Made by a program: the position numbers and the translations under genes | NCBI RefSeq assembly: GCF_003019035.1 | Contig: NZ_CP027447.1 | DNA length: 64,000 bases | Source: Escherichia coli | GTDB lineage: Bacteria > Pseudomonadota > Gammaproteobacteria > Enterobacterales > Enterobacteriaceae | Strand: one strand, 5' to 3' | In this document: positions 6,878 to 29,037 of the stretch, in pieces | How positions within the stretch are numbered: position 1 is the first letter of the stretch | Layout of the letters: every line of letters starts with the position of its first letter | The notes under the pieces: model-generated | What the model was told of the DNA's origin: nothing | What the model saw: the letters and a program-made list of their open reading frames with translations, nothing else | The model's database searches: none

Positions 6878-7066
6878 ATGCAGGACTATTTTTTGGAGTC
6901 TTTGAAGCTCCAGCGCATTGATTTTTTTCTTAAGCTTGTAGCGGCTAGTGAGTGTAGTGATGAAGAGAAGGGGCTGGCTCTGCAGTGGGTTTCTGAATTG
7001 ACTGATGAACTCATGGCAAAAATCAGAAGCCACGAATACAACCGCTCAATGGATGTCATCAGCTGA
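6878..7066 (+). CDS. small SOS-controlled protein (62 aa), possible Tum-like antirepressor N-terminal module
   Basis: Strong RBS AGGAGG before ATG; immediately downstream of the LexA box; followed after 10 bp by the DinI-like ORF. Confidence 0.4.
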   Translation: MQDYFLESLKLQRIDFFLKLVAASECSDEEKGLALQWVSELTDELMAKIRSHEYNRSMDVIS

Positions 7067-8236: not shown

Positions 8237-8303
8237 CGCGCGCTTATTACTTTGATAGTACTCGGGTTATAATATGGATGACTATCTATCTCGGAGAATG
8301 TGC

Positions 8304-9956
8304 ATGTCATTGGACTATATTAAAGAACAGTTGTCAGACTTTATTTCATCTGCAGAACCTGAGGTAATGGCTATTCAGGGTGAATGGGGGATTGGGAAAA
8401 CCTATACTTGGAATACTTTCTTAAAGGAAAATAAAAATAAGATTGCATTTAATAGATATAGTTACGTCTCTCTTTTTGGTGTTAATTCATTGGACGCATT
8501 AAAATATTCCATCTTTGAAAATACAATTACAAAAGATTTTATTGGAAATAAACCTAATTTAAAAACAGCAACACAAAATACAAAGGGACTTCTTGAATCC
8601 TGCACTAGAAAGACCGCTCGTTTGTTAAAAGAAACACCTGTTGTGAAAAATTTCGCTACGACACTTGAGTCAATGTCATTTATGTCAATTACTAATGTTA
8701 TTGTAGTCATAGATGACTTAGAAAGACGTGGTAAAAATTTAGAAGTGAAAGATGTCTTAGGGTTGGTTTCTTTATTGAAAGAACAAAAAAATTGTAAGGT
8801 GGTTCTTTTACTTAATAATGGGACAAGTGGTATGGATGATTACTCCACTTATAAAGAAAAGGTTATTGATAGAGAGATTACCTATAACCCTACGCCAGAA
8901 GAATGTGCAGCTATAGCATATAAAAATAATTCTGATGTTCATAAATTATTAAGCAAATACTCCATTTCTCTGGGTATTAAAAATATTCGGATACTGAAAA
9001 AAATAGAGCGGTTTTTGCTAGCCTTGTTACCTGCTATTAACGTTAATTTTGATAAAATTGCAAATGAAGTCGCACGCTCCTTAACTTTGTATTGTTGGAG
9101 TCATTACGCATTTACTCCAGATGGAGATGTACCATCATTGGAATATATTAGAAATATGAGAAATATCTATATGCGTGATGAAAAAGAGGATGGAAAAGGA
9201 AAAAAATGGCTTAATACTTTGCTTATATATGGTTATAAAAAAACAAACGAACTTGATGAAGTCCTTATAGACATGGTTAAGCATGGATATATTGATATGA
9301 ACAATTTTCAAAGGCAAGTAAGTCTAAGAAATGATGAACTTATCCGTGATAGTAAGCGAGGTTCACTGTTTGAAGCATGGAAGCTTTTCTATAATTCATT
9401 TGAAGATAACCGAAATCAGGTTGTTGATAATCTATATCAAGCGGTGGTTGGTGGGATAGAGTATGTAACTCCAAGTGACTTGGATAGTGTTGTCGGACTG
9501 TATAGAGATTTAGATGAAAATATTAAAGCAAGTGAATTAATAAGTAAATTTATTAATTACGGCAATGATGCTCTTAAGGAATATGTCCAATCTATTTACA
9601 TGAATGTTCATCCTATAAAAGATGCTGAGTTAAAGTCAAAAATCCAAGATTATTCTATTACTTTAAATCTGGATGGTTCTATAAAGGATGTTCTAATAAA
9701 ATTATCAAGTCAGAATGGTTGGTCTGATAGGCACGAGGAAATATTGGATGCTGCCTCAGAGGATGACTACTATGATTTATTTAAAAAAGTCATTCTTGAA
9801 GGTGGTGATTCAATAATAGCCACTGCTCTTAAGTTTGGTGGGTATAGCAATGGTTCAGATAGAATGAAACGCATCGGAGAAAAAGCGAGAAATGCTTTGA
9901 TAAGAATTGGAAATGAGTCGAAGATTAATAAAATACGTGTTAGACGGTATTTGTAA
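8304..9956 (+). CDS. KAP-family P-loop NTPase (standalone, ~550 aa)
   Basis: Walker A GEWGIGKT (KAP signature GxWGxGK[ST]) and Walker B VIVVIDDLERR; no obvious transmembrane insert; AT-rich; perfect TATAAT at 8268-8273 upstream. ATG 8304 chosen for RBS spacing; the track ORF begins at 8274. Confidence 0.8.
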   Translation: MSLDYIKEQLSDFISSAEPEVMAIQGEWGIGKTYTWNTFLKENKNKIAFNRYSYVSLFGVNSLDALKYSIFENTITKDFIGNKPNLKTATQNTKGLLESCTRKTARLLKETPVVKNFATTLESMSFMSITNVIVVIDDLERRGKNLEVKDVLGLVSLLKEQKNCKVVLLLNNGTSGMDDYSTYKEKVIDREITYNPTPEECAAIAYKNNSDVHKLLSKYSISLGIKNIRILKKIERFLLALLPAINVNFDKIANEVARSLTLYCWSHYAFTPDGDVPSLEYIRNMRNIYMRDEKEDGKGKKWLNTLLIYGYKKTNELDEVLIDMVKHGYIDMNNFQRQVSLRNDELIRDSKRGSLFEAWKLFYNSFEDNRNQVVDNLYQAVVGGIEYVTPSDLDSVVGLYRDLDENIKASELISKFINYGNDALKEYVQSIYMNVHPIKDAELKSKIQDYSITLNLDGSIKDVLIKLSSQNGWSDRHEEILDAASEDDYYDLFKKVILEGGDSIIATALKFGGYSNGSDRMKRIGEKARNALIRIGNESKINKIRVRRYL

Positions 9957-18375: not shown

Positions 18376-18397
18376 AAGCCAGCCTTTATTTTTTTAT
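18365..18397 (+). terminator. rho-independent terminator after S
   Basis: GGCTGGC-ATAAAA-GCCAGCC hairpin followed by TTTATTTTTTT. Confidence 0.55.
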
Positions 18398-19251
18398 GTG
18401 ATGGCCCCTATCTTTTGATTGTAATAACTATAATCAGCATGTTCTTCTGTATAAAAAATCTCAAATGCAGACAAGATGTTTGCGTAAAAACTATCCTTGG
18501 ATATAGAGGTTTTTTTATTGATGGATGCCAAAAAGTTTGTTATAAATCTTAATGATGCTGAGAAAAGAAAGTGCCCTTTCACCCAATGATTTATAGATGT
18601 ATTTTCTGGGAATTGAATGTTGTTTTTTTCTGCCAAACCATTAGTAGTAAACGATTCAGGTAGTCTATTGATATATTCATCTATTTTTTTCTTGCATATA
18701 TTGTATGAATTTCTTGATTGCATAAAACGATCACAGGAATCACCAATTACGGAGCATCCTAATTTATTTAAATGATTGTGAATATCTAGTATTATTAAGT
18801 TCTCAATGTTGCTATAGAAGTTAGAAAGCCAATTTCCTACATCTATTTCCTGCATTTTTTTTGTGCAAAAACGGCCTGTGTTTTTGAGTATGTGTGATAT
18901 GATTTTTTCATCAATGATTGTGTTTTCTATTGAATATCCCTTTGTGTAAATAATATTTGTATGCTTTACTATGTTGTCAGAAAAATGGTTTAGATCCGAA
19001 TCTCTGGCAACTATGGCGTTTATTTCTCCTGAGGTTATTTTTTCGATATATGGTTGTAAAGCTTCACATCCACCAACATCTTGAACTTCTACATTAAAAC
19101 GACCATTTTTTTTAAAAATTATTTCCCAAAAAGCAATGTCATCTTCACCTTCAACATAGACCATAATATCAGCATCATAAAATAAACTGATCACATTTTC
19201 CGCTTCATTAGACCAAGAAAAGTTTTCTGCATTAGAATCATTGATTAGCAT
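18394..19251 (-). CDS. Toprim/DUF4435-like protein (AriB-like), 285 aa
   Basis: Toprim-like acidic motifs VYVEGEDD (conserved Glu) and IVARDSD (DxD); overlaps the upstream ATPase gene by 14 bp; very AT-rich. Confidence 0.65.
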   Translation of the reverse strand: MLINDSNAENFSWSNEAENVISLFYDADIMVYVEGEDDIAFWEIIFKKNGRFNVEVQDVGGCEALQPYIEKITSGEINAIVARDSDLNHFSDNIVKHTNIIYTKGYSIENTIIDEKIISHILKNTGRFCTKKMQEIDVGNWLSNFYSNIENLIILDIHNHLNKLGCSVIGDSCDRFMQSRNSYNICKKKIDEYINRLPESFTTNGLAEKNNIQFPENTSINHWVKGHFLFSASLRFITNFLASINKKTSISKDSFYANILSAFEIFYTEEHADYSYYNQKIGAIT

Positions 19252-20494
19252 TGACTAATCTCTCCATATTGAAAATGGCGTTTTTATATTTAGATGCAAC
19301 TTCAGGAGAATGGGTTGCAGCAATAATTTGTGCATTAGGATTTAATTTTTTTATGGCAGGGATAATATTTCTTTGCCATTGAATATGTAAGGAAAGCTCA
19401 GGCTCATCAGTTAGGAAAATATATTGTTGCCCTCTTTGTAAGAGGGTCTCAATGAATAAAATTAGCAGTTGTTTTTCACCAGAAGATAAACTTTCTAAAA
19501 CTATTGGCCCATAGGTGTTATTTATGACTAACAATCCCGATTGAAAATGAAATTCTTTATCGGTGATAAAATTTCTTAGTATGCTTAAGAATTGTTCTAT
19601 TGGAGAAAATATTTTTGATGTTTTCTCTTTTGAAGTTAATGACATTTTGATTATTTTTTGTGTTTTTCTCAATGCTTCGATCGAACGAATATCAAAGCCT
19701 CTTTCACTTTTATTCTTTAATTCTGAAATGGTATTATTAATTGTTTCAACATGAAAGCTGATTTTTTTACGAATGTTTTGATCAATAGCATTTAACTGTG
19801 TGTATGCATTAAGGAGGTTTTGTTTTTCTTCCTCTTTGTTAAAGTTAATGTTGTAAGCAGGATTCTCCATATCTTCCTTGCTATAAAGTATTGATGCCAG
19901 AACCTCTTTTTGAAGTTCTAATGCGATATCTCTGGCTTTCTGGGATAGTTCAAGTTGATATTTTGTAAGTTCCTGTATTAATTCTGATAACTTATAGTCA
20001 ACAGGGTTGATAAAACGAGAGCCATATTTATCTTTAACTTCAAAATCATCACTATTTCTTAATCTGTAAACAGATAAAGAAGAAAGCGAGACTAGTTTTG
20101 CTAGTTCTGTTCTTAGTTCTTCTGTTTCATCATGCACTCTACGTCTATAACTAAGAGATATTCTTCTATCATCAGTGTTAAATAAACGAATTGTGTGTTT
20201 TTTAGATGAAAGCTGATATTCTATTTTGGAAAATGGAGATGTATCGCTTTCAAGTTTTTTGACTTTGATTGTTTTTGTCTTTTTTTTATCTTTAAGTTTT
20301 ATTTCGGCACTATTGAAATCAGCATTGTTAATACTGTCCAAATCAAGGGATAATATTGAGTGCAGAAGGTTCATAAAGGTTGTTTTACCCGTGCCATTTC
20401 GGCCTATAATAATGTTTACATCATCATTAAATGAGCAGGAACAGTTTAATCGCTGCCAAAAGCCATTAATTGTGACGCTTTGAATTTTATACAT
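19238..20494 (-). CDS. ABC/SMC-like ATPase (AAA_15/AAA_21-type, AriA-like), 418 aa
   Basis: Walker A GRNGTGKTT, ABC-signature-like LSSGEKQ, Walker B YIFLTDEPELSLH, H-loop IIAATHSPEV, with a charged coiled-coil-like insert between them. Confidence 0.75.
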   Translation of the reverse strand: MYKIQSVTINGFWQRLNCSCSFNDDVNIIIGRNGTGKTTFMNLLHSILSLDLDSINNADFNSAEIKLKDKKKTKTIKVKKLESDTSPFSKIEYQLSSKKHTIRLFNTDDRRISLSYRRRVHDETEELRTELAKLVSLSSLSVYRLRNSDDFEVKDKYGSRFINPVDYKLSELIQELTKYQLELSQKARDIALELQKEVLASILYSKEDMENPAYNINFNKEEEKQNLLNAYTQLNAIDQNIRKKISFHVETINNTISELKNKSERGFDIRSIEALRKTQKIIKMSLTSKEKTSKIFSPIEQFLSILRNFITDKEFHFQSGLLVINNTYGPIVLESLSSGEKQLLILFIETLLQRGQQYIFLTDEPELSLHIQWQRNIIPAIKKLNPNAQIIAATHSPEVASKYKNAIFNMERLVNANQ

Positions 20495-20541
20495 CTATGT
20501 ATCCTTTATTATTAGTTGAACTACTTAAATTTATAATCATT

Positions 20542-20559
20542 TGTGTCATTCTCAGTACA
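20542..20559. promoter_or_regulatory. candidate late-promoter activator site upstream of V (TGTGT-N9-TACA)
   Basis: TGTGTCATTCTCAGTACA; same pattern as the sites upstream of O and FI. Confidence 0.4.
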
Positions 20560-20606
20560 ATTATGCCGTTTGGAAGATATTATTTCAAATGTTTAATATA
20601 TACGGT

Positions 20607-22436: not shown

Positions 22437-23034
22437 TCTGCTGCCACCGGGTTCAACTTCACTGGAGCGCCGACTGGCGCAGACCTGTAGCGGGATTTCT
22501 GATCTGCAGGTGCCGCTGCGTGACTTGTGGAATCCGGCAACCTGTCCGGTCAGTTTCCTGCCTTATCTCGCCTGGGCGTTCTCTGTGGATCGCTGGGACG
22601 AGGTCTGGACAGAAAGCGTCAAGCGCCAGGTGGTGAAGGATGCTTTTTATATTCATCAGCATAAAGGGACCACCAGTGCCGTGCGGCGGGTGGTGGAGCC
22701 GTTCGGCTTTCTGATTCGCATTATTGAGTGGTGGCAGACCGGAGAGACACCGGGCACGTTTCGTCTGGATATCGGCGTGCAGGACCAGGGCATCACTGAA
22801 GATACCTATCTGGAACTTGAGCGACTGATAAGCGATGCCAAACCATGTAGCCGTCACATGATCGGCATGTCCATCAACCTGCAGACCAGCGGCCCGCATT
22901 GGGTGGGAGTCGCCAGCTATCTTGGCGAAGAAATCACGATTTATCCGTATATCAACGAAACGATTATTTCCGGCGGCACCGCGCATGAAGGCGGGGCGGT
23001 CCATGTTATTGACACAATGAGAGTGAATCCATGA
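22429..23034 (+). CDS. baseplate/tail protein (P2 gpI homolog)
   Basis: 201-aa ORF between J and the tail fibre gene. Confidence 0.85.
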   Translation: MNSLLPPGSTSLERRLAQTCSGISDLQVPLRDLWNPATCPVSFLPYLAWAFSVDRWDEVWTESVKRQVVKDAFYIHQHKGTTSAVRRVVEPFGFLIRIIEWWQTGETPGTFRLDIGVQDQGITEDTYLELERLISDAKPCSRHMIGMSINLQTSGPHWVGVASYLGEEITIYPYINETIISGGTAHEGGAVHVIDTMRVNP

Positions 23035-24407
23035 GCACAAAATTTTATACCCTGCTGACGGATATTGGCGCGGCGAAACTTGCCAGCGCCGCCGCGCTCG
23101 GTGTGCCGCTAAAAATTACCCATATGGCGGTGGGCGATGGCGGTGGAGCATTGCCGACGCCGGACGCAAAGCAGACTGCACTGGTAAATGAGAAACGCCG
23201 GGCTGCGCTGAATATGCTCTATATCGACCCGCAGAACAGTAGCCAGATTATTGCTGAACAGGTGATCCCTGAAAACGAGGGCGGTTGGTGGATACGTGAA
23301 GTGGGCCTGTTTGATGAGTCAGGGGCATTGATTGCCGTGGGAAACTGCCCGGAAAGCTATAAGCCGCAACTGGCTGAAGGCAGCGGGCGCACCCAGACTG
23401 TGCGCATGGTGCTGATTACCAGCAGCACGGACAATATCACCCTGAAAATCGACCCTGCCGTCGTGCTGGCAACCCGCAAGTATGTGGATGATAAGGTACT
23501 GGAGCTGAAGGTGTACGTGGATGATCAGATGGCAAAACATCTTGCCGCACCGGACCCACATTCACAGTACGCACCCAAAGAAAGCCCGATATTTACCGGA
23601 ACACCCAAAGCGCCAACGCCAGCGGCTGGGAATAATACCACGCAGCTTGCGACCACCGCGTTTGTTCAGGCGGCACTGACGACACTGATTAATGGTGCGC
23701 CAGCCACGCTGGACACGCTGAAAGAAATAGCCACAGCCATTAACAATGATCCGAAATTCAGTACCACTATCAACAATGCGCTGGCACTGAAAGCGCCGTT
23801 GTCGAGTCCGGCACTCACCGGAACGCCAACAGCACCTACTGCGGCACAGTCGGTCAACAATACACAGATTGCCACCACGGCTTTTGTGAAATCGGCGATT
23901 GCGGCAATGGTGGGTTCTGCCCCTGCGGCACTGGATACACTGAACGAACTGGCGGCGGCACTGGGGAATGACCCGAATTTTGCCACGACAATGCTTAATG
24001 CGCTGTCAGGTAAACAACCGCTGGACAATACGCTGACTAATTTGAGTGGAAAGGATGTTGCTGGTCTTCTCGCATTCCTGGGTTTGAAAACCGCCGCACA
24101 ACGCGACGTTGGGACTGGCACAAATCAAATTCCTGACATGAACGCTTTTAGCTCTGGCTCTGGCTGGCAGAAATTACCTGGAGGCAGGATTCTGCAGTGG
24201 CGGGGAATAGCCAATGGCCCTGGGGATATTACAAGCCCGCTACCCATTCCATTTCCAAATCGCGCAATAGGATGGGCAATTACGTCCGATTATGTACCAG
24301 GGTCAGGCGGAGTTGGCACAATAGCGGGGACGTGTACTGCAACGAATATCATTTCACGAAATACAAATGTGAGCACTGGTGGTAGCGCTATCGTAGTGGG
24401 GGAATAG
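23031..24407 (+). CDS. tail fibre protein (P2 gpH homolog)
   Basis: 458 aa; conserved gpH-type N-terminus (MSTKFYTLLTDIGAAKLA...); repetitive Ala/Thr-rich shaft; divergent C-terminus. Confidence 0.85.
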   Translation: MSTKFYTLLTDIGAAKLASAAALGVPLKITHMAVGDGGGALPTPDAKQTALVNEKRRAALNMLYIDPQNSSQIIAEQVIPENEGGWWIREVGLFDESGALIAVGNCPESYKPQLAEGSGRTQTVRMVLITSSTDNITLKIDPAVVLATRKYVDDKVLELKVYVDDQMAKHLAAPDPHSQYAPKESPIFTGTPKAPTPAAGNNTTQLATTAFVQAALTTLINGAPATLDTLKEIATAINNDPKFSTTINNALALKAPLSSPALTGTPTAPTAAQSVNNTQIATTAFVKSAIAAMVGSAPAALDTLNELAAALGNDPNFATTMLNALSGKQPLDNTLTNLSGKDVAGLLAFLGLKTAAQRDVGTGTNQIPDMNAFSSGSGWQKLPGGRILQWRGIANGPGDITSPLPIPFPNRAIGWAITSDYVPGSGGVGTIAGTCTATNIISRNTNVSTGGSAIVVGE

Positions 24408-24409
24408 GT

Positions 24410-24832
24410 ATGAGAACGTATCGCTATGACGCAATAACAAACGCATTTTATCCGTATGAGCTACAGAATGAGTATGAACAAGCAGGGATGTGGCCGGAGT
24501 CGGGCCATGATGTGAATGAAGATATTTTTCAGCAATTCATCAACCCTCCCGCAGGTAAGGTGCGTGTTGCCGGGAATGACGGAATGCCAGCATGGGGGGA
24601 TATTCCGCCACCGGCTCATGATGAACTCGTTGCGGTAGCAGATGTGAAAAAAGCAGCACTATTGGCAGAAGCGTCAGTCGTTATCGCCCCGCTGGCTGAT
24701 GCACAGGCGGGCGGTTATATCGATGACGCTGACGTGCCGCGACTGGCAGCATGGCAGAAATATCGCTATGCACTGACGAAAGTGGATACATCAACTGCGC
24801 CGGATATCACCTGGCCGCTGCAACCAGTGTAG
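24410..24832 (+). CDS. tail fibre assembly protein (P2 gpG / Tfa homolog)
   Basis: 140-aa ORF directly after H. Confidence 0.8.
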   Translation: MRTYRYDAITNAFYPYELQNEYEQAGMWPESGHDVNEDIFQQFINPPAGKVRVAGNDGMPAWGDIPPPAHDELVAVADVKKAALLAEASVVIAPLADAQAGGYIDDADVPRLAAWQKYRYALTKVDTSTAPDITWPLQPV

Positions 24833-25016
24833 AAATCTTTAGTGTAAATCGTCAAAGATGCTGGCGACTTGATGATTGATGACGGTATCAGTGATGATAA
24901 TTTACAGGTTGTACGGGAATAATACATAACAATTTGAATGGGGTATAATAGATAAATAATACATCATCATACCCCATTTTAGCCATTATCTATTGGCAAA
25001 AATATTCTTAATACCT

Positions 25017-26054
25017 TTATATTTGCCTACCTCCTAATAAAATGTGTGAGGTGTATTTGTTGGTTTTCAATAACCTTGCTACAATTATACAGGTGGTTAC
25101 AATAAGGAAAACAAATGAAGGGGTTATGATGAGGTTATATATGAGTGGATTTTCGCATAGGTTATTAATGTTCACGTATGCCTCTATTCTGTGAAAAATA
25201 AACGACGAGATTATATAGATGGGAAAGGTGTAAGTACCGACAAAGGATGTGGCTCGTATAAATAAATTATTTTTCGTTGATAAAAATGTATAAGCATATA
25301 TAAGCGATATGCTTCCGGCGAAGCCAATGAAGTAGCGAAATATAATAATGAATGATTGATGCCAGAAATCAACATTCTCATATGTCATTTTAGATATGTA
25401 AATATAATACTCTCTATTCCATAGGAGAAGCATACCAATCCATGTTAATACGGCTAACACACCAATTTTGTGCCTATTTCTAGAGGCAAAATCTAAAATG
25501 CGATGGGCGGATATACCAGCGATAAAATAAGGGGCCATAAATTTAATTTTGTCCATATTCCAATCATCTCCATATGCAAGGGATATACTAAATATCAGTA
25601 AATAAAGCACCACAGAATATTGTTTGCTTATTGAGTGACAAATAGTATAAACAATAGATACTGCAAAGAGTGCAGAAAGGAACCAGAAGGCGTAGATGGC
25701 TCCATATCTAATATTTATTAAATTTATATCTCTTCCCACAAAAATGGATTCAGCAATGAACCATGCAATGGATGGGATTATTAACTGCATGAATTTTCTT
25801 TTGATAATTGATGATGGTTTTCTCTTGAGAGAAAAATAGAAAAGATAGCCGCTAAGCAGCATAAAAAATGGCATGTGGAAGCTGTAAATGGTAATAAATA
25901 ATGGGTTGTCAAAAAAATTGAAACTATCTTTTTTTACAAACTGAATTGAATGGCCCCACACGACAAAAATTATAGCTAATCCTTTCATTGAGTCTATAAT
26001 GGAATTTCGAGTGCTGGGTGTCTCTGTTATAATAAGATGTGGTTCGTTTTTCAT
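25017..26054 (-). CDS. acyltransferase family 3 integral membrane protein (O-antigen/LPS O-acetyltransferase-like)
   Basis: 345 aa, highly hydrophobic multi-TM; N-terminal region GLAIIFVVWGHSIQF typical of acyltransferase-3; very AT-rich; opposite strand to tail genes. Confidence 0.75.
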   Translation of the reverse strand: MKNEPHLIITETPSTRNSIIDSMKGLAIIFVVWGHSIQFVKKDSFNFFDNPLFITIYSFHMPFFMLLSGYLFYFSLKRKPSSIIKRKFMQLIIPSIAWFIAESIFVGRDINLINIRYGAIYAFWFLSALFAVSIVYTICHSISKQYSVVLYLLIFSISLAYGDDWNMDKIKFMAPYFIAGISAHRILDFASRNRHKIGVLAVLTWIGMLLLWNREYYIYISKMTYENVDFWHQSFIIIFRYFIGFAGSISLIYAYTFLSTKNNLFIRATSFVGTYTFPIYIISSFIFHRIEAYVNINNLCENPLIYNLIITPSFVFLIVTTCIIVARLLKTNKYTSHILLGGRQI

Positions 26055-26386
26055 TTAATTTGTCAACTTTAGATTGAGTGGTATAAGAATTGCAACTAAA
26101 CACTCGTGAGCTAATATTTACATATATTATCAATGATCATTAATTCAATCAATTAGGAATTGCTTTATTGTATGTAACAGATTCTCATTTTGGGGTAGAT
26201 GCTACTATTGCTGTCATCACACCATAAATTAAGTCCATTCATATTAGATATCTTGGGTCGTTCCGGGAAGTACACGGCCACTATCAGTAAATGTGTGGTA
26301 AGAGCTTCACCAGTCGAACGTTTTTGAAAATACAGAGATAATGGCTAACAGGCATCATCCCCGGTTTTTATTTAGGGGGATGCTCA

Positions 26387-26706
26387 TGCTTATTGGCTAT
26401 GTACGTGTATCAACAAATGACCAGAACACTGATTTGTAATGCAATGCGCTGAACTGCGCGGGATGTGCGCGGATTTTTGAGGATAAAATCAGTGGCACTA
26501 AGTCCGACAGGCCGGGACTGGCTGCAGCTCGCGCCAAAGGCAGAGTAGGTGGACGCCGTCCTAAGTTGACCACCGAACAGTGGGCACAGATTGGACGTTT
26601 ACTCGAGGCCGGAGAATCAAGACAGCGTATTGCACTGATTTTTGATGTAGGCGTTTCTACCATTTATCGAAAATTTCCGGCAAATAAGAGCAATGAATCT
26701 CCCTGA
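26387..26706 (+). pseudogene. DNA invertase (Hin/Gin/Pin/Cin serine recombinase) pseudogene
   Basis: N-terminus MLIGYVRVSTNDQNTDL then in-frame TAA (26438-26440) where Hin has Gln; RPGL joins directly to AAARAKGR (catalytic core of ~100 codons missing); C-terminal HTH GGRRPKLTTEQWAQIGRLL...STIYRKF is in a different frame (1-nt shift near 26640). Confidence 0.8.
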
Positions 26707-26754
26707 ATCAGCTTTATTTTGATTATCCCTGAAAGCAGACAAATACCGTCATTT

Positions 26755-26772
26755 TGTGTGAATAACGGTACA
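26755..26772. promoter_or_regulatory. candidate late-promoter activator site upstream of FI (TGTGT-N9-TACA)
   Basis: TGTGTGAATAACGGTACA, centred ~85 bp upstream of the FI start codon. Confidence 0.45.
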
Positions 26773-26848
26773 ACTGCGCTTAGCTGTTTGTCAGGCACAA
26801 TAACTTCAACATAGGGCGAAGCCTAATCCAATCAGGAGGTTCGCCACT

Positions 26849-28021
26849 ATGGCTCAGGATTACCACCACGGGGTGCGCGTAGTTGAAGTCAACGAAGGCA
26901 CCCGATCCATTACCACGGTGAGCACCGCCATCGTGGGTATGGTCTGCACGGGCGATGATGCCGATGCAAAAATGTTTCCTCTTAATAAACCCGTGCTGAT
27001 CACTGATGTGCTGACTGCCAGCGGTAAAGCGGGTGAGTCCGGTACGCTGGCCCGTTCGCTGGATGCCATCGCTGACCAGGCAAAACCCGTGACCGTTGTT
27101 GTGCGTGTGCCGCAGGGTGAAACGGAAGAAGAAACCACGACCAATATCATCGGAGCAGTGACCGCTGAAGGTAAAAAAACAGGCATGAAAGCCCTGTTAT
27201 CTGCCCAGTCACAGCTCGGCGTTAAACCGCGCATTCTCGGCGTGCCAGGTCACGACACGAAGGCGGTAGCTACTGAGTTGCTGAGCGTGGCGCAAAGCCT
27301 GCGTGGGTTTGCTTACCTGTCAGCGTATGGTTGCAAGACGGTGCAGGAAGCAATCACTTACCGTGAAAACTTCAGTCAGCGTGAAGGAATGCTGATCTGG
27401 CCCGACTTTACTGGCTGGGACACGGTGCTGAATGCCGAAGCAACGGCTTATGCCACCGCCCGTGCGCTTGGTCTGCGCGCTAAAATTGACGAGCAGACCG
27501 GATGGCACAAAAGCCTGTCCAACGTGGGCGTGAACGGTGTCACCGGAATTTCTGCTGATGTGTTCTGGGATCTGCAGGACCCGGCAACCGATGCAGGTCT
27601 GCTGAACCAGAACGACGTCACCACGCTTGTGCGTAAAGACGGTTTCCGCTTCTGGGGTTCCCGCAGCCTGAGTGATGACCCGCTCTTTGCCTTCGAAAAC
27701 TACACCCGCACGGCGCAGGTGTTGATGGACACGATGGCAGAAGCACACATGTGGGCGGTGGATAAACCGCTTAACCCGTCGCTGGCCCGCGACATTATCG
27801 AAGGTATCCGCGCCAAAATGCGCAGCCTGGTCAGTCAGGGCTATCTCATTGGTGGTGATTGCTGGCTGGATGAGTCGGTGAACGACAAAGACACGCTGAA
27901 AACCGGAAAACTCACCATCGACTATGACTACACGCCAGTGCCGCCACTTGAAAATCTGATGCTGCGCCAGCGCATCACCGATCAGTACCTGGTGAATTTC
28001 GCCAGCCAGGTCAGCGCGTAA
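26849..28021 (+). CDS. tail sheath protein (P2 gpFI homolog)
   Basis: 390-aa ORF followed by the tail tube gene. Confidence 0.9.
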
Positions 28022-28030
28022 GGGGACAAC

Positions 28031-28546
28031 ATGGCTTTACCACGCAAATTAAAACATCTGAACTTGTTTAACGACGGGAACAACTGGCAGGGGATCGTTG
28101 AGTCGCTGACGCTGCCGAAATTCACCCGCAAATATGAGAAGTATCGCGGCGGCGGTATGCCGGGGGCGGTGGATGTGGATCTGGGACTGGATGACAGTGC
28201 ACTGGATACAGAATTTTCCATTGGTGGTACTGAACTGCTGCTGTTTAAGCAGATGGGCAAATCCACGGTGGATGGCATCCAGCTGCGCTTTACCGGCTCT
28301 ATCCAGCGTGACGATACCGGGGAAGTGCAGGCCGTGGAGCTTGTCGTGCGTGGACGTCACAAAGAAGTGGATTCCGGCGAGTGGAAGACGGGCGAAAGCA
28401 ACACCACCAAAGTGACCAATACCAACAGCTACGCGAAGCTGACCATCAATGGTGAGGTGCTCTATGAAGTGGACCTTATCAACATGGTGGAAATTGTGGA
28501 CGGTGTGGACCTGATGGAAGCGCACCGCAACGCCCTCGGCCTCTGA
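28031..28546 (+). CDS. tail tube protein (P2 gpFII homolog)
   Basis: 171-aa ORF after the sheath gene. Confidence 0.9.
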   Translation: MALPRKLKHLNLFNDGNNWQGIVESLTLPKFTRKYEKYRGGGMPGAVDVDLGLDDSALDTEFSIGGTELLLFKQMGKSTVDGIQLRFTGSIQRDDTGEVQAVELVVRGRHKEVDSGEWKTGESNTTKVTNTNSYAKLTINGEVLYEVDLINMVEIVDGVDLMEAHRNALGL

Positions 28547-28600
28547 TGTATCTGAACGGCGCGGAATACCGCGCCAGAACCCAATTGACAGGACAGCAAA

Positions 28601-28903
28601 ATGAGCGATAAGCAGACTGAAAAGACCATTCAACTGGATACCCCCATCAAGCGCGGTAAAACAGAAATCACCGAAATTGTGCTGCGTAAACCGCAGTCCG
28701 GTGCGCTGCGCGGTACACGCCTGCAGGCCATTATGGATATGGATGTAAACGCGATGATGACCGTGATCCCCCGCATCTCCAGTCCGGCACTGACTGCACA
28801 GGAAATTGCAGAGATGGACCCGGCAGATCTCACTGCCATGTCGGTTGAGGTTGTCACTTTTTTGTTGAAGAAGTCGGTGCTTGCCGTTTTACCGACAGCC
28901 TGA
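28601..28903 (+). CDS. tail assembly chaperone (P2 gpE homolog)
   Basis: 100-aa ORF upstream of the tape measure gene; contains a T6G slippery site near its 3' end. Confidence 0.8.
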   Translation: MSDKQTEKTIQLDTPIKRGKTEITEIVLRKPQSGALRGTRLQAIMDMDVNAMMTVIPRISSPALTAQEIAEMDPADLTAMSVEVVTFLLKKSVLAVLPTA

Positions 28904-29037
28904 CGGTTGACGATCTGGTGGCAGATATCGCCACCATTTTTCACTGGCCGCCATCCGTTACTGACGTTATGCCGCTGACCGAAGTGCTGGAATGGCGGTA
29001 TAAAGCGATTCAGAGAAGCGGGGCCAACGATGAGTGA
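28601..29037 (+). CDS. tail assembly chaperone frameshift product (gpE+E' equivalent, -1 frameshift at 28858-28864)
   Basis: Slippery TTTTTTG at 28858-28864; the -1 frame continues open (FFVEEVGACRFTDSLTVDDLVADIATIFHWPP...RSGANDE) to TGA at 29035-29037, overlapping the T start. Confidence 0.65.

Follow-up and report, generated by a model that had tools for sequence, protein, structure and literature searches.

Why should a temperate phage keep, between the genes for tail-fibre assembly and the tail sheath, a strikingly AT-rich gene for a membrane-bound acyltransferase that is transcribed against its neighbours? The question is raised by a 64,000-nucleotide stretch of Escherichia coli DNA (contig NZ_CP027447.1 of assembly GCF_003019035.1; hereafter the window), which carries a P2-like (Wadgaonvirus-like) prophage with such a gene. 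The answer that we consider probable, though by no means assured, is that the gene encodes an intact enzyme consisting of an acyltransferase-3 (AT3) domain alone, that it is a moron of the prophage, and that it acylates an envelope glycan as a function of lysogenic conversion. A role in surface-glycan acylation is proposed chiefly because homologues of the enzyme recur beside receptor-binding genes and glycan-modification loci. The domain, motifs, fold and intactness of the protein, the anatomy of its locus and the recurrent context of its relatives are directly established.

The region in question begins at position 24833, the first base past the stop codon of the tail-fibre assembly gene G (24410-24832), and runs to 26386, where the ATG of an invertase remnant starts. 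The initial annotation had described a 345-aa polytopic protein of acyltransferase-3 type on the opposite strand in very AT-rich DNA, and the open reading frame (ORF), the base composition, the Pfam match and the structural model all bore out this description. GC content was 0.31-0.35 over 24800-26300 compared to 0.52-0.59 in the flanking phage genes; the AT3 gene itself has 33% GC and a GC content at third codon positions of 0.35, the corresponding third-position values being 0.54 for the tail-fibre gene H, 0.47 for G and 0.64 for the sheath gene FI. The hidden Markov model search for Acyl_transf_3 (PF01757) that the annotation had proposed as a check was run and returned a full-length match as the sole domain (residues 19-325 against model positions 3-324 of 326, E = 2.1e-26). 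The position between G and FI, known in the literature as the P2 Z/fun hotspot, was likewise upheld by the PHROGs assignments of the neighbouring genes and by the published definition of the hotspot (bioRxiv 10.1101/2024.10.15.618418), so defined as to take in a non-structural gene between G and FI of a P2-like phage, as here.

The sequence carries the motifs R16, D21, K24-X10-H35, SFHMP with H60, SG68-69, K87-x-x-Q90 and P94. In an alignment with the 11 closest relatives, R16, D21, K24, G25, H35, S58-F-H60-M-P62 and S68-G69 were invariant, as were L91, P94, W124-F125, D163, K171, Y217-I-Y219, R240, G273 and Y280, and Q90 was kept in at least 90% of this set (the protein itself included); the ORF is full length, and every residue invariant in the subfamily is present. 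Over a broader set of 54 sequences, reaching down to ~24% identity, H35, M61, P62, G69, G273 and Y280 remained invariant. K24-X10-H35, with K24 invariant in the 12 closest sequences and H35 in all 54, fits the R/K-X10-H motif of transmembrane helix 1 (Arg14/His25 in OafB), which is reported to be essential in OafA and OafB (PMC9558356; PMC9833829). Because a simple hydropathy scan under-called the transmembrane helices, the AlphaFold (AF2) model was used instead; it is all-helical and polytopic, with a predicted local distance difference test score (pLDDT) of 93.2 and a predicted template modelling score (pTM) of 0.91, and it ends after the last transmembrane helices. Its neighbours in the AlphaFold Database (AFDB) were AT3 proteins with template modelling (TM) scores of 0.80-0.93, many of them labelled 'fucose 4-O-acetylase' or NolL. 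The best fold match in the PDB was human HGSNAT (probability 1.0, TM 0.46); neither the fold search nor the sequence search of the PDB turned up an AT3 protein, the latter giving no match at all. HGSNAT has been placed with AT3 proteins in a common TmAT fold (PMC12423673), and the fold match is consistent with that proposal.

The relatives of the protein were found in settings that strengthen, by their genomic context, the case for lysogenic conversion through surface-glycan O-acylation. Its closer relatives, spanning 45-64% identity, lie next to tail-fibre chaperone genes in several types of prophage: a homologue with 49% identity is convergent to a Caudo_TAP chaperone gene in a Citrobacter cronae prophage of a different, non-P2 myovirus type, one with 50% identity is convergent to a Caudo_TAP chaperone gene in a metagenomic prophage of that same myovirus type, and another with 50% identity is convergent to the remnant of a chaperone gene in a Kosakonia prophage remnant. 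A second P2-like prophage, from IMG/VR (L016), holds a homologue with 53% identity in the same H-to-FI slot, without an invertase and with two truncated chaperone fragments; its junctions differ, and it is therefore taken to be an independent acquisition at the same hotspot. Among more distant AT3 genes in IMG/VR contigs L022-L028, a convergent chaperone gene again lay within ~1 kb. Other homologues occur at glycan-modification loci, one with 49% identity in Cronobacter (L007), close to an integrase fragment and directly upstream of genes for a GtrB-like family 2 glycosyltransferase (GT2), a small flippase-like protein and a membrane protein of 608 aa, and one with 33% identity inside a wzx/wzy polysaccharide cluster. 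An E. coli homologue with 39% identity, present in 844 blocks of the assembly collection, sits between integrase and tailspike of P22-like prophages, which is the position of oac in Sf6. On this record of gene neighbourhoods, the subfamily is repeatedly tied to receptor-binding genes in enterobacterial prophages.

Three of these loci have features of their own. The AT3 cassette of L016 has on either side a copy of a 24-bp direct repeat, AATATCCGCCAGTACCGGCTCACC; the copies, at ~7020-7050 and ~8345-8375, lie within the truncated chaperone fragments, and the chaperone gene there seems to have been disrupted by the cassette. In the Cronobacter locus, L007 1680-4812 encodes the GtrB-like GT2, a 114-aa EamA-like protein and the 608-aa polytopic protein, the last without Pfam or PHROG match, and the three proteins may together form a periplasmic glycosylation system whose transferase would be a novel one of GtrC type. 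In the P22-like E. coli prophages L009-L012 (5916-8870), two AT3 genes, one of them matching phrog_3333, flank a gene for a 334-aa protein, a three-gene arrangement that looks like a candidate seroconversion locus.

We compared the locus with its closest phages to determine what the cassette had displaced. In these phages the interval between G and FI holds an inverted second chaperone gene, an inverted second fibre-tip gene and a gene for a 188-aa DNA invertase of Hin/Gin type. In phage 500465-1 (our locus L001) a 27-nt inverted repeat forms the crossover sites (L001 3568-3594 and 5398-5424), one arm lying within H at the junction of its constant and variable parts and the other just upstream of the invertase; we take these sites to be akin to the hix/gix/cix sites. 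Homology between the window and phage 500465-1 ends at 24086, within the left site, and restarts at 26317, in the centre of the right site, and between the two sites the window has another fibre tip and another G, followed by the AT-rich cassette. Pfam recognised Phage_tail_fib, Gp53-like_C and Caudo_TAP in the identical H and G genes of a metagenomic copy of the locus (L003). From these homology breaks, the AT3 cassette is judged to have taken the place of the alternative tip and chaperone half, starting from the centre of the right crossover site. No leftovers of alternative fibre genes were detected in the two non-coding flanks of the cassette (tblastx and blastn against all loci), and searches of the window for target-site duplications or flanking direct repeats gave only short chance matches.

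The invertase next to the cassette has decayed. It carries an in-frame 246-bp deletion of about codons 46-127, with its junction near 26515, which is common to two independent metagenomic copies (L003 and L004), and in the window codon 18 (26437-26439) has additionally changed from CAA to the stop codon TAA; the PHROG DNA invertase match falls on the C-terminal helix-turn-helix of the remnant. The locus thus lacks a functional invertible segment, with half a right site, no alternative fibre genes, and an invertase that is both deleted and interrupted by a stop. Since the invertase is a pseudogene and the alternative half has been replaced, host-range switching has been lost. The initial annotation had named the hotspot alone, without the invertible segment. 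The Z/fun hotspot is described as a site of mixed content, with fibre swaps and invertases as well as other cargo (bioRxiv 10.1101/2024.10.15.618418), and no AT3 gene was described in the G-FI slot in the literature that we searched. Phase-variable AT3 expression by inversion was considered and rejected as unlikely, as the right site has only a degenerate inner half to offer and no copy examined has a working invertase; an inversion would besides join H to a 14-codon junk tail. The coordinates are collected below.

Features of the AT3 locus and of the other cargo of the prophage (positions in the window)
Feature	Position	Strand	Description and basis
AT3-only acyltransferase gene	25017-26054	minus	ATG start, 345 aa; ORF list and Pfam
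AT-rich foreign cassette	24833 to ~26316		~33% GC; AT3 gene and flanks only; composition and homology break
Hairpin, candidate bidirectional terminator	24936-24979		inverted repeat I1 between convergent G and AT3 genes
AT-rich 5' region of AT3 gene	26055-26316	minus	262 bp; presumed promoter region
Left hix/gix-like crossover site	24067-24092	plus	TTCTCGCATTCCTGGGTTTGAAAACC; inside H at constant/variable junction; matches L001 3568-3594
Right crossover site	26305-26330	plus	outer half 26317-26330 kept, GAACGTTTTTGAAAA; inner half degenerate or replaced; aligned with L001 5398-5424
Tail-fibre gene H	23031-24407	plus	tip from ~24093; tail fibre by PHROGs; convergent with AT3
Tail-fibre assembly gene G	24410-24832	plus	tail-fibre assembly protein by PHROGs; convergent with AT3
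DNA invertase pseudogene, Hin/Gin type	26386-26706	plus	aligned with intact 188-aa invertase of phage 500465-1 and with L003 and L004
Tail sheath gene FI	26849-28021		PHROGs
PARIS defence pair	18394-20494	minus	AriA-like ATPase 19238-20494 (E = 2e-38); AriB-like 18394-19251 (E = 2e-21)
PDC-S49 candidate defence ORF	8274-9956	plus	560 aa; PADLOC, E = 4e-25; P2 old/tin hotspot position, from replication gene A to the portal gene

The prophage lies in a chromosomal flank (ybjL-grxA) that is 99.5-100% identical to E. coli chromosomes, and its backbone is 95-98% identical to Peduoviridae, among them Escherichia phage 500465-1 (Wadgaonvirus), and to several P2-like phages of Klebsiella. The exact AT3 protein has been recorded from E. 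coli and from cryptic Escherichia clades, in 138 blocks of the assembly collection, and the arrangement was identical in all 24 of the contigs read from these blocks. Near-identical cassette DNA was found neither in 5,426 complete RefSeq E. coli genomes nor in 50,697 phage records; the allele of the fibre tip and G (24093-24832) had no near match in the same genomes or phage records either, so that no 'empty site' or ancestral version with the same tip allele could be recovered. A tblastn search of the phage records with the AT3 protein gave two weak matches only, both to phages of Gram-positive hosts. Between the window and L003, the block of H, G, AT3 and FI (within 23031-29000) was 99-100% identical, while the other tail genes (T, U, D and V-I) were 94-97% identical, which suggests a recent recombinational exchange of the H-to-FI block between related prophages.

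For the donor, acceptor, expression and phenotype of the enzyme, we infer the following course by analogy with studied AT3 proteins. The protein would form a 10-helix pore that presents cytoplasmic acyl-CoA, most likely acetyl-CoA, to H35 near the periplasmic face, where this residue would be paired with K24, and the acyl group would then pass to a hydroxyl group on a sugar of an envelope glycan; the likeliest target would be the O-antigen repeat unit, either linked to undecaprenyl pyrophosphate (Und-PP) or mature, or another sugar linked to lipopolysaccharide (LPS). Expression in the lysogen from a promoter of its own could alter a surface structure bound by tail fibres, those of the same phage included, and the changed surface might shift the serotype and make it harder for this phage and related ones to adsorb. 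As to how the gene arrived, the cassette probably came in by way of the right crossover site and took over the half that encodes the alternative tip and chaperone, with the invertase decaying afterwards. The gene presumably has its own promoter: the best candidate, picked by eye, pairs TTGATT (26152-26147) with TAATAT (26129-26124) at a spacing of 17 nt and matches the consensus at 8 of 12 positions. The hairpin between the convergent G and AT3 genes folds as RNA at -20.8 kcal/mol (z = -4.5) on the plus strand and at -25.3 kcal/mol (z = -4.2) on the minus strand, and none of 200 shuffled sequences was as stable; a simple terminator scan missed it on account of its long loop. Rfam gave no match on the cassette and its flanks.

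A number of results weigh against this proposal and have to be set beside the competing explanations. The kinship with Oac and OafA to which the initial annotation had pointed held at the level of the AT3 family and went no further: BLASTP detected no similarity to Sf6 Oac (E = 3.6), neither Pfam nor the model gave the 345-aa protein an SGNH domain such as OafA and OafB have, and PHROGs offered no family for it at E ≤ 0.01, in a collection that is able to detect such enzymes, since the neighbouring AT3 protein of the L009 locus matches its O-acetyltransferase family. The nearest characterised relative, NolL, is distant, with 24-26% identity over the full length, and the NolL equivalog NF042426 of NCBIfam, covering positions 4-340 of 347, scored 68.3 bits against a cut-off of 425. 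The RXXR motif at the cytoplasmic face of transmembrane helix 3, reported to be essential in Oac, OafA and OafB and described as 'highly conserved' rather than absolute (PMC9833829), is missing, the aligned site reading K87-F-M-Q90. Only one relative (P0011) has RxxR, and the near-invariant glutamine extends to the member inside the wzx/wzy cluster; judged from the alignment, KxxQ is a subfamily variant of RXXR, and the protein belongs to an uncharacterised NolL-like AT3 subfamily that has this variant and is absent from PHROGs. There is also the case of phage Kapi1, whose lysogeny alters the O-antigen and for which the gene responsible has not been identified, over-expression of a candidate prophage acyltransferase alone having failed to reproduce the LPS change (bioRxiv 10.1101/2021.04.09.439263). 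No Kapi1-like record was among the phage tblastn matches to the AT3 protein, and homology of the Kapi1 candidate to it would be conjectural. Moreover, AT3 enzymes also acylate enterobacterial common antigen (ECA), capsules, periplasmic glucans and secreted glycolipids, and the AT3-only proteins include WecH (ECA), IcaC, Lag-1 and NolL (PMC9558356). These precedents favour an enzyme that acts on another glycan (ECA, group 1/4 capsule or colanic acid, LPS core, or periplasmic glucans), with a benefit lying in barrier function, in immune evasion or in keeping out phages that depend on capsule or core, and not in a change of O-serotype; that NolL works on a fucosylated lipo-oligosaccharide and that the AFDB neighbours are annotated as fucose 4-O-acetylases points the same way. 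Classical P2, too, binds the LPS core. We nevertheless regard this alternative as unlikely, though to be taken seriously, as the Gtr-like cluster, the wzx/wzy repeat-unit cluster and the position equivalent to Sf6 oac among the relatives all point to repeat-unit polysaccharides linked to Und-PP, which in E. coli usually means the O-antigen.

Other results bear on whether the gene acts at all. AT-rich foreign DNA is often silenced, and the composition of the cassette is typical of xenogeneically silenced DNA; the consensus promoter scan upstream of the AT3 ATG returned nothing at 9/12 or better, and no clear Shine-Dalgarno sequence precedes this ATG. Close alleles of the gene differ by four non-synonymous changes and one synonymous change, too few to show purifying selection. 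Together with the adjoining invertase pseudogene, the loss of the alternative fibre and the absence from the complete RefSeq genomes, these points suit a silent or decaying passenger that arrived by illegitimate or invertase-mediated recombination in an already decaying region and confers no benefit. Such a passenger seems to us improbable in view of the full-length ORF with all its subfamily-invariant residues and a well-predicted fold, of an arrangement kept in all the contigs read, and of homologous cassettes, with other alleles and junctions, that several prophages gained independently at sites of this kind. Finally, the other hotspots of the prophage hold PARIS (AriA/AriB) and a PDC-S49-like candidate, and the Z/fun slot is known for defence genes (bioRxiv 10.1101/2024.10.15.618418), which might hint at an anti-phage defence or another non-glycan role, for example as a membrane effector; PADLOC, however, matched the AT3 protein to none of its families, and the gene stands alone with the full AT3 catalytic signature, so that such a role is highly implausible.

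An extension of glycan acylation by the AT3 enzyme, and one that we find doubtful, is that tip, chaperone and AT3 gene constitute a mobile 'recognise-and-mask' module which moves as a unit between unrelated prophages through recombination in chaperone genes or invertase crossover sites, and that the enzyme specifically hides the receptor to which the adjacent tip binds. The phage, on this view, would have swapped an alternative host-range cassette for self-exclusion. The idea derives from the homology of all three proteins between the window and the Citrobacter prophage (tip 47%, of Gp53-like_C type; chaperone 36%; AT3 49%), from the co-divergence of chaperone and AT3 protein in the Kosakonia and metagenomic pair (63% and 64% identity), and from the 99-100% identity of the shared block against 3-6% divergence elsewhere. 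These comparisons, a small sample, are compatible with mobility of the three genes as a unit.

Among known systems, the closest in role is Oac (OacA) of Shigella phage Sf6, which, with OacB, OacC and OacD, is likewise a prophage-borne AT3-only protein of ~333-345 aa. The Sf6 gene is also convergent to a receptor-binding protein gene and has its own promoter and terminator, and Oac O-acetylates the O-antigen and blocks superinfection (PMC9558356), the same role as that proposed here. The present protein differs in belonging to another AT3 clade, with KxxQ for RXXR and no pairwise similarity, and its carrier is a P2-like myovirus with the gene in a former invertible segment, while the Sf6 gene lies between tailspike and int. 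The Salmonella proteins OafA and OafB (GtrC family II) share the AT3 domain, the R/K-X10-H motif and a role in O-antigen acetylation affecting phage sensitivity, and are AT3-SGNH fusions of ~600 aa, as opposed to 345 aa without SGNH here. NolL, a rhizobial Nod-factor fucose 4-O-acetyltransferase (COG3594-type), has the same AT3-only architecture and fold, and differs in being encoded on a symbiosis plasmid and acting on a secreted lipo-chitooligosaccharide, not carried as prophage cargo. The P22-like int-tailspike AT3 locus (Kapi1-type) is abundant in E. coli, holds its 39%-identical homologue in the classical seroconversion position, and belongs to another phage type with two AT3 genes and a third gene. 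With respect to the invertible segments of Mu (G/Gin), P1 (C/Cin) and e14 (Pin), relatives of the window phage have the full segment with 27-nt sites and an intact invertase, whereas here a gene for an unrelated membrane enzyme takes up one half, the right site has lost its inner half and the invertase is defunct.

A prophage glycan O-acyltransferase beside receptor-binding genes is of a familiar kind and leaves the understanding of lysogenic conversion unchanged. What the locus adds is the anatomy of a replaced half-segment with a decayed invertase and a NolL-like AT3 subfamily tied to tail-fibre chaperone genes, together with a candidate to test. It offers a clean natural example of a temperate phage trading tail-fibre phase switching for a putative receptor-modifying gene. 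If the O-antigen is modified, the surface chemistry of carriers would not be predicted by their O-antigen gene cluster, and with the exact protein in at least 138 sample blocks this would have consequences for molecular serotyping, for vaccine epitopes and for which phages are chosen for therapy.

The prophage has a second AT-rich island between its tail-completion genes and baseplate gene V, where GC falls to ~0.29-0.31 at 20000-20600. The PARIS pair listed in the table accompanies the AT3 cassette in the carriers L066 and L067 as well.

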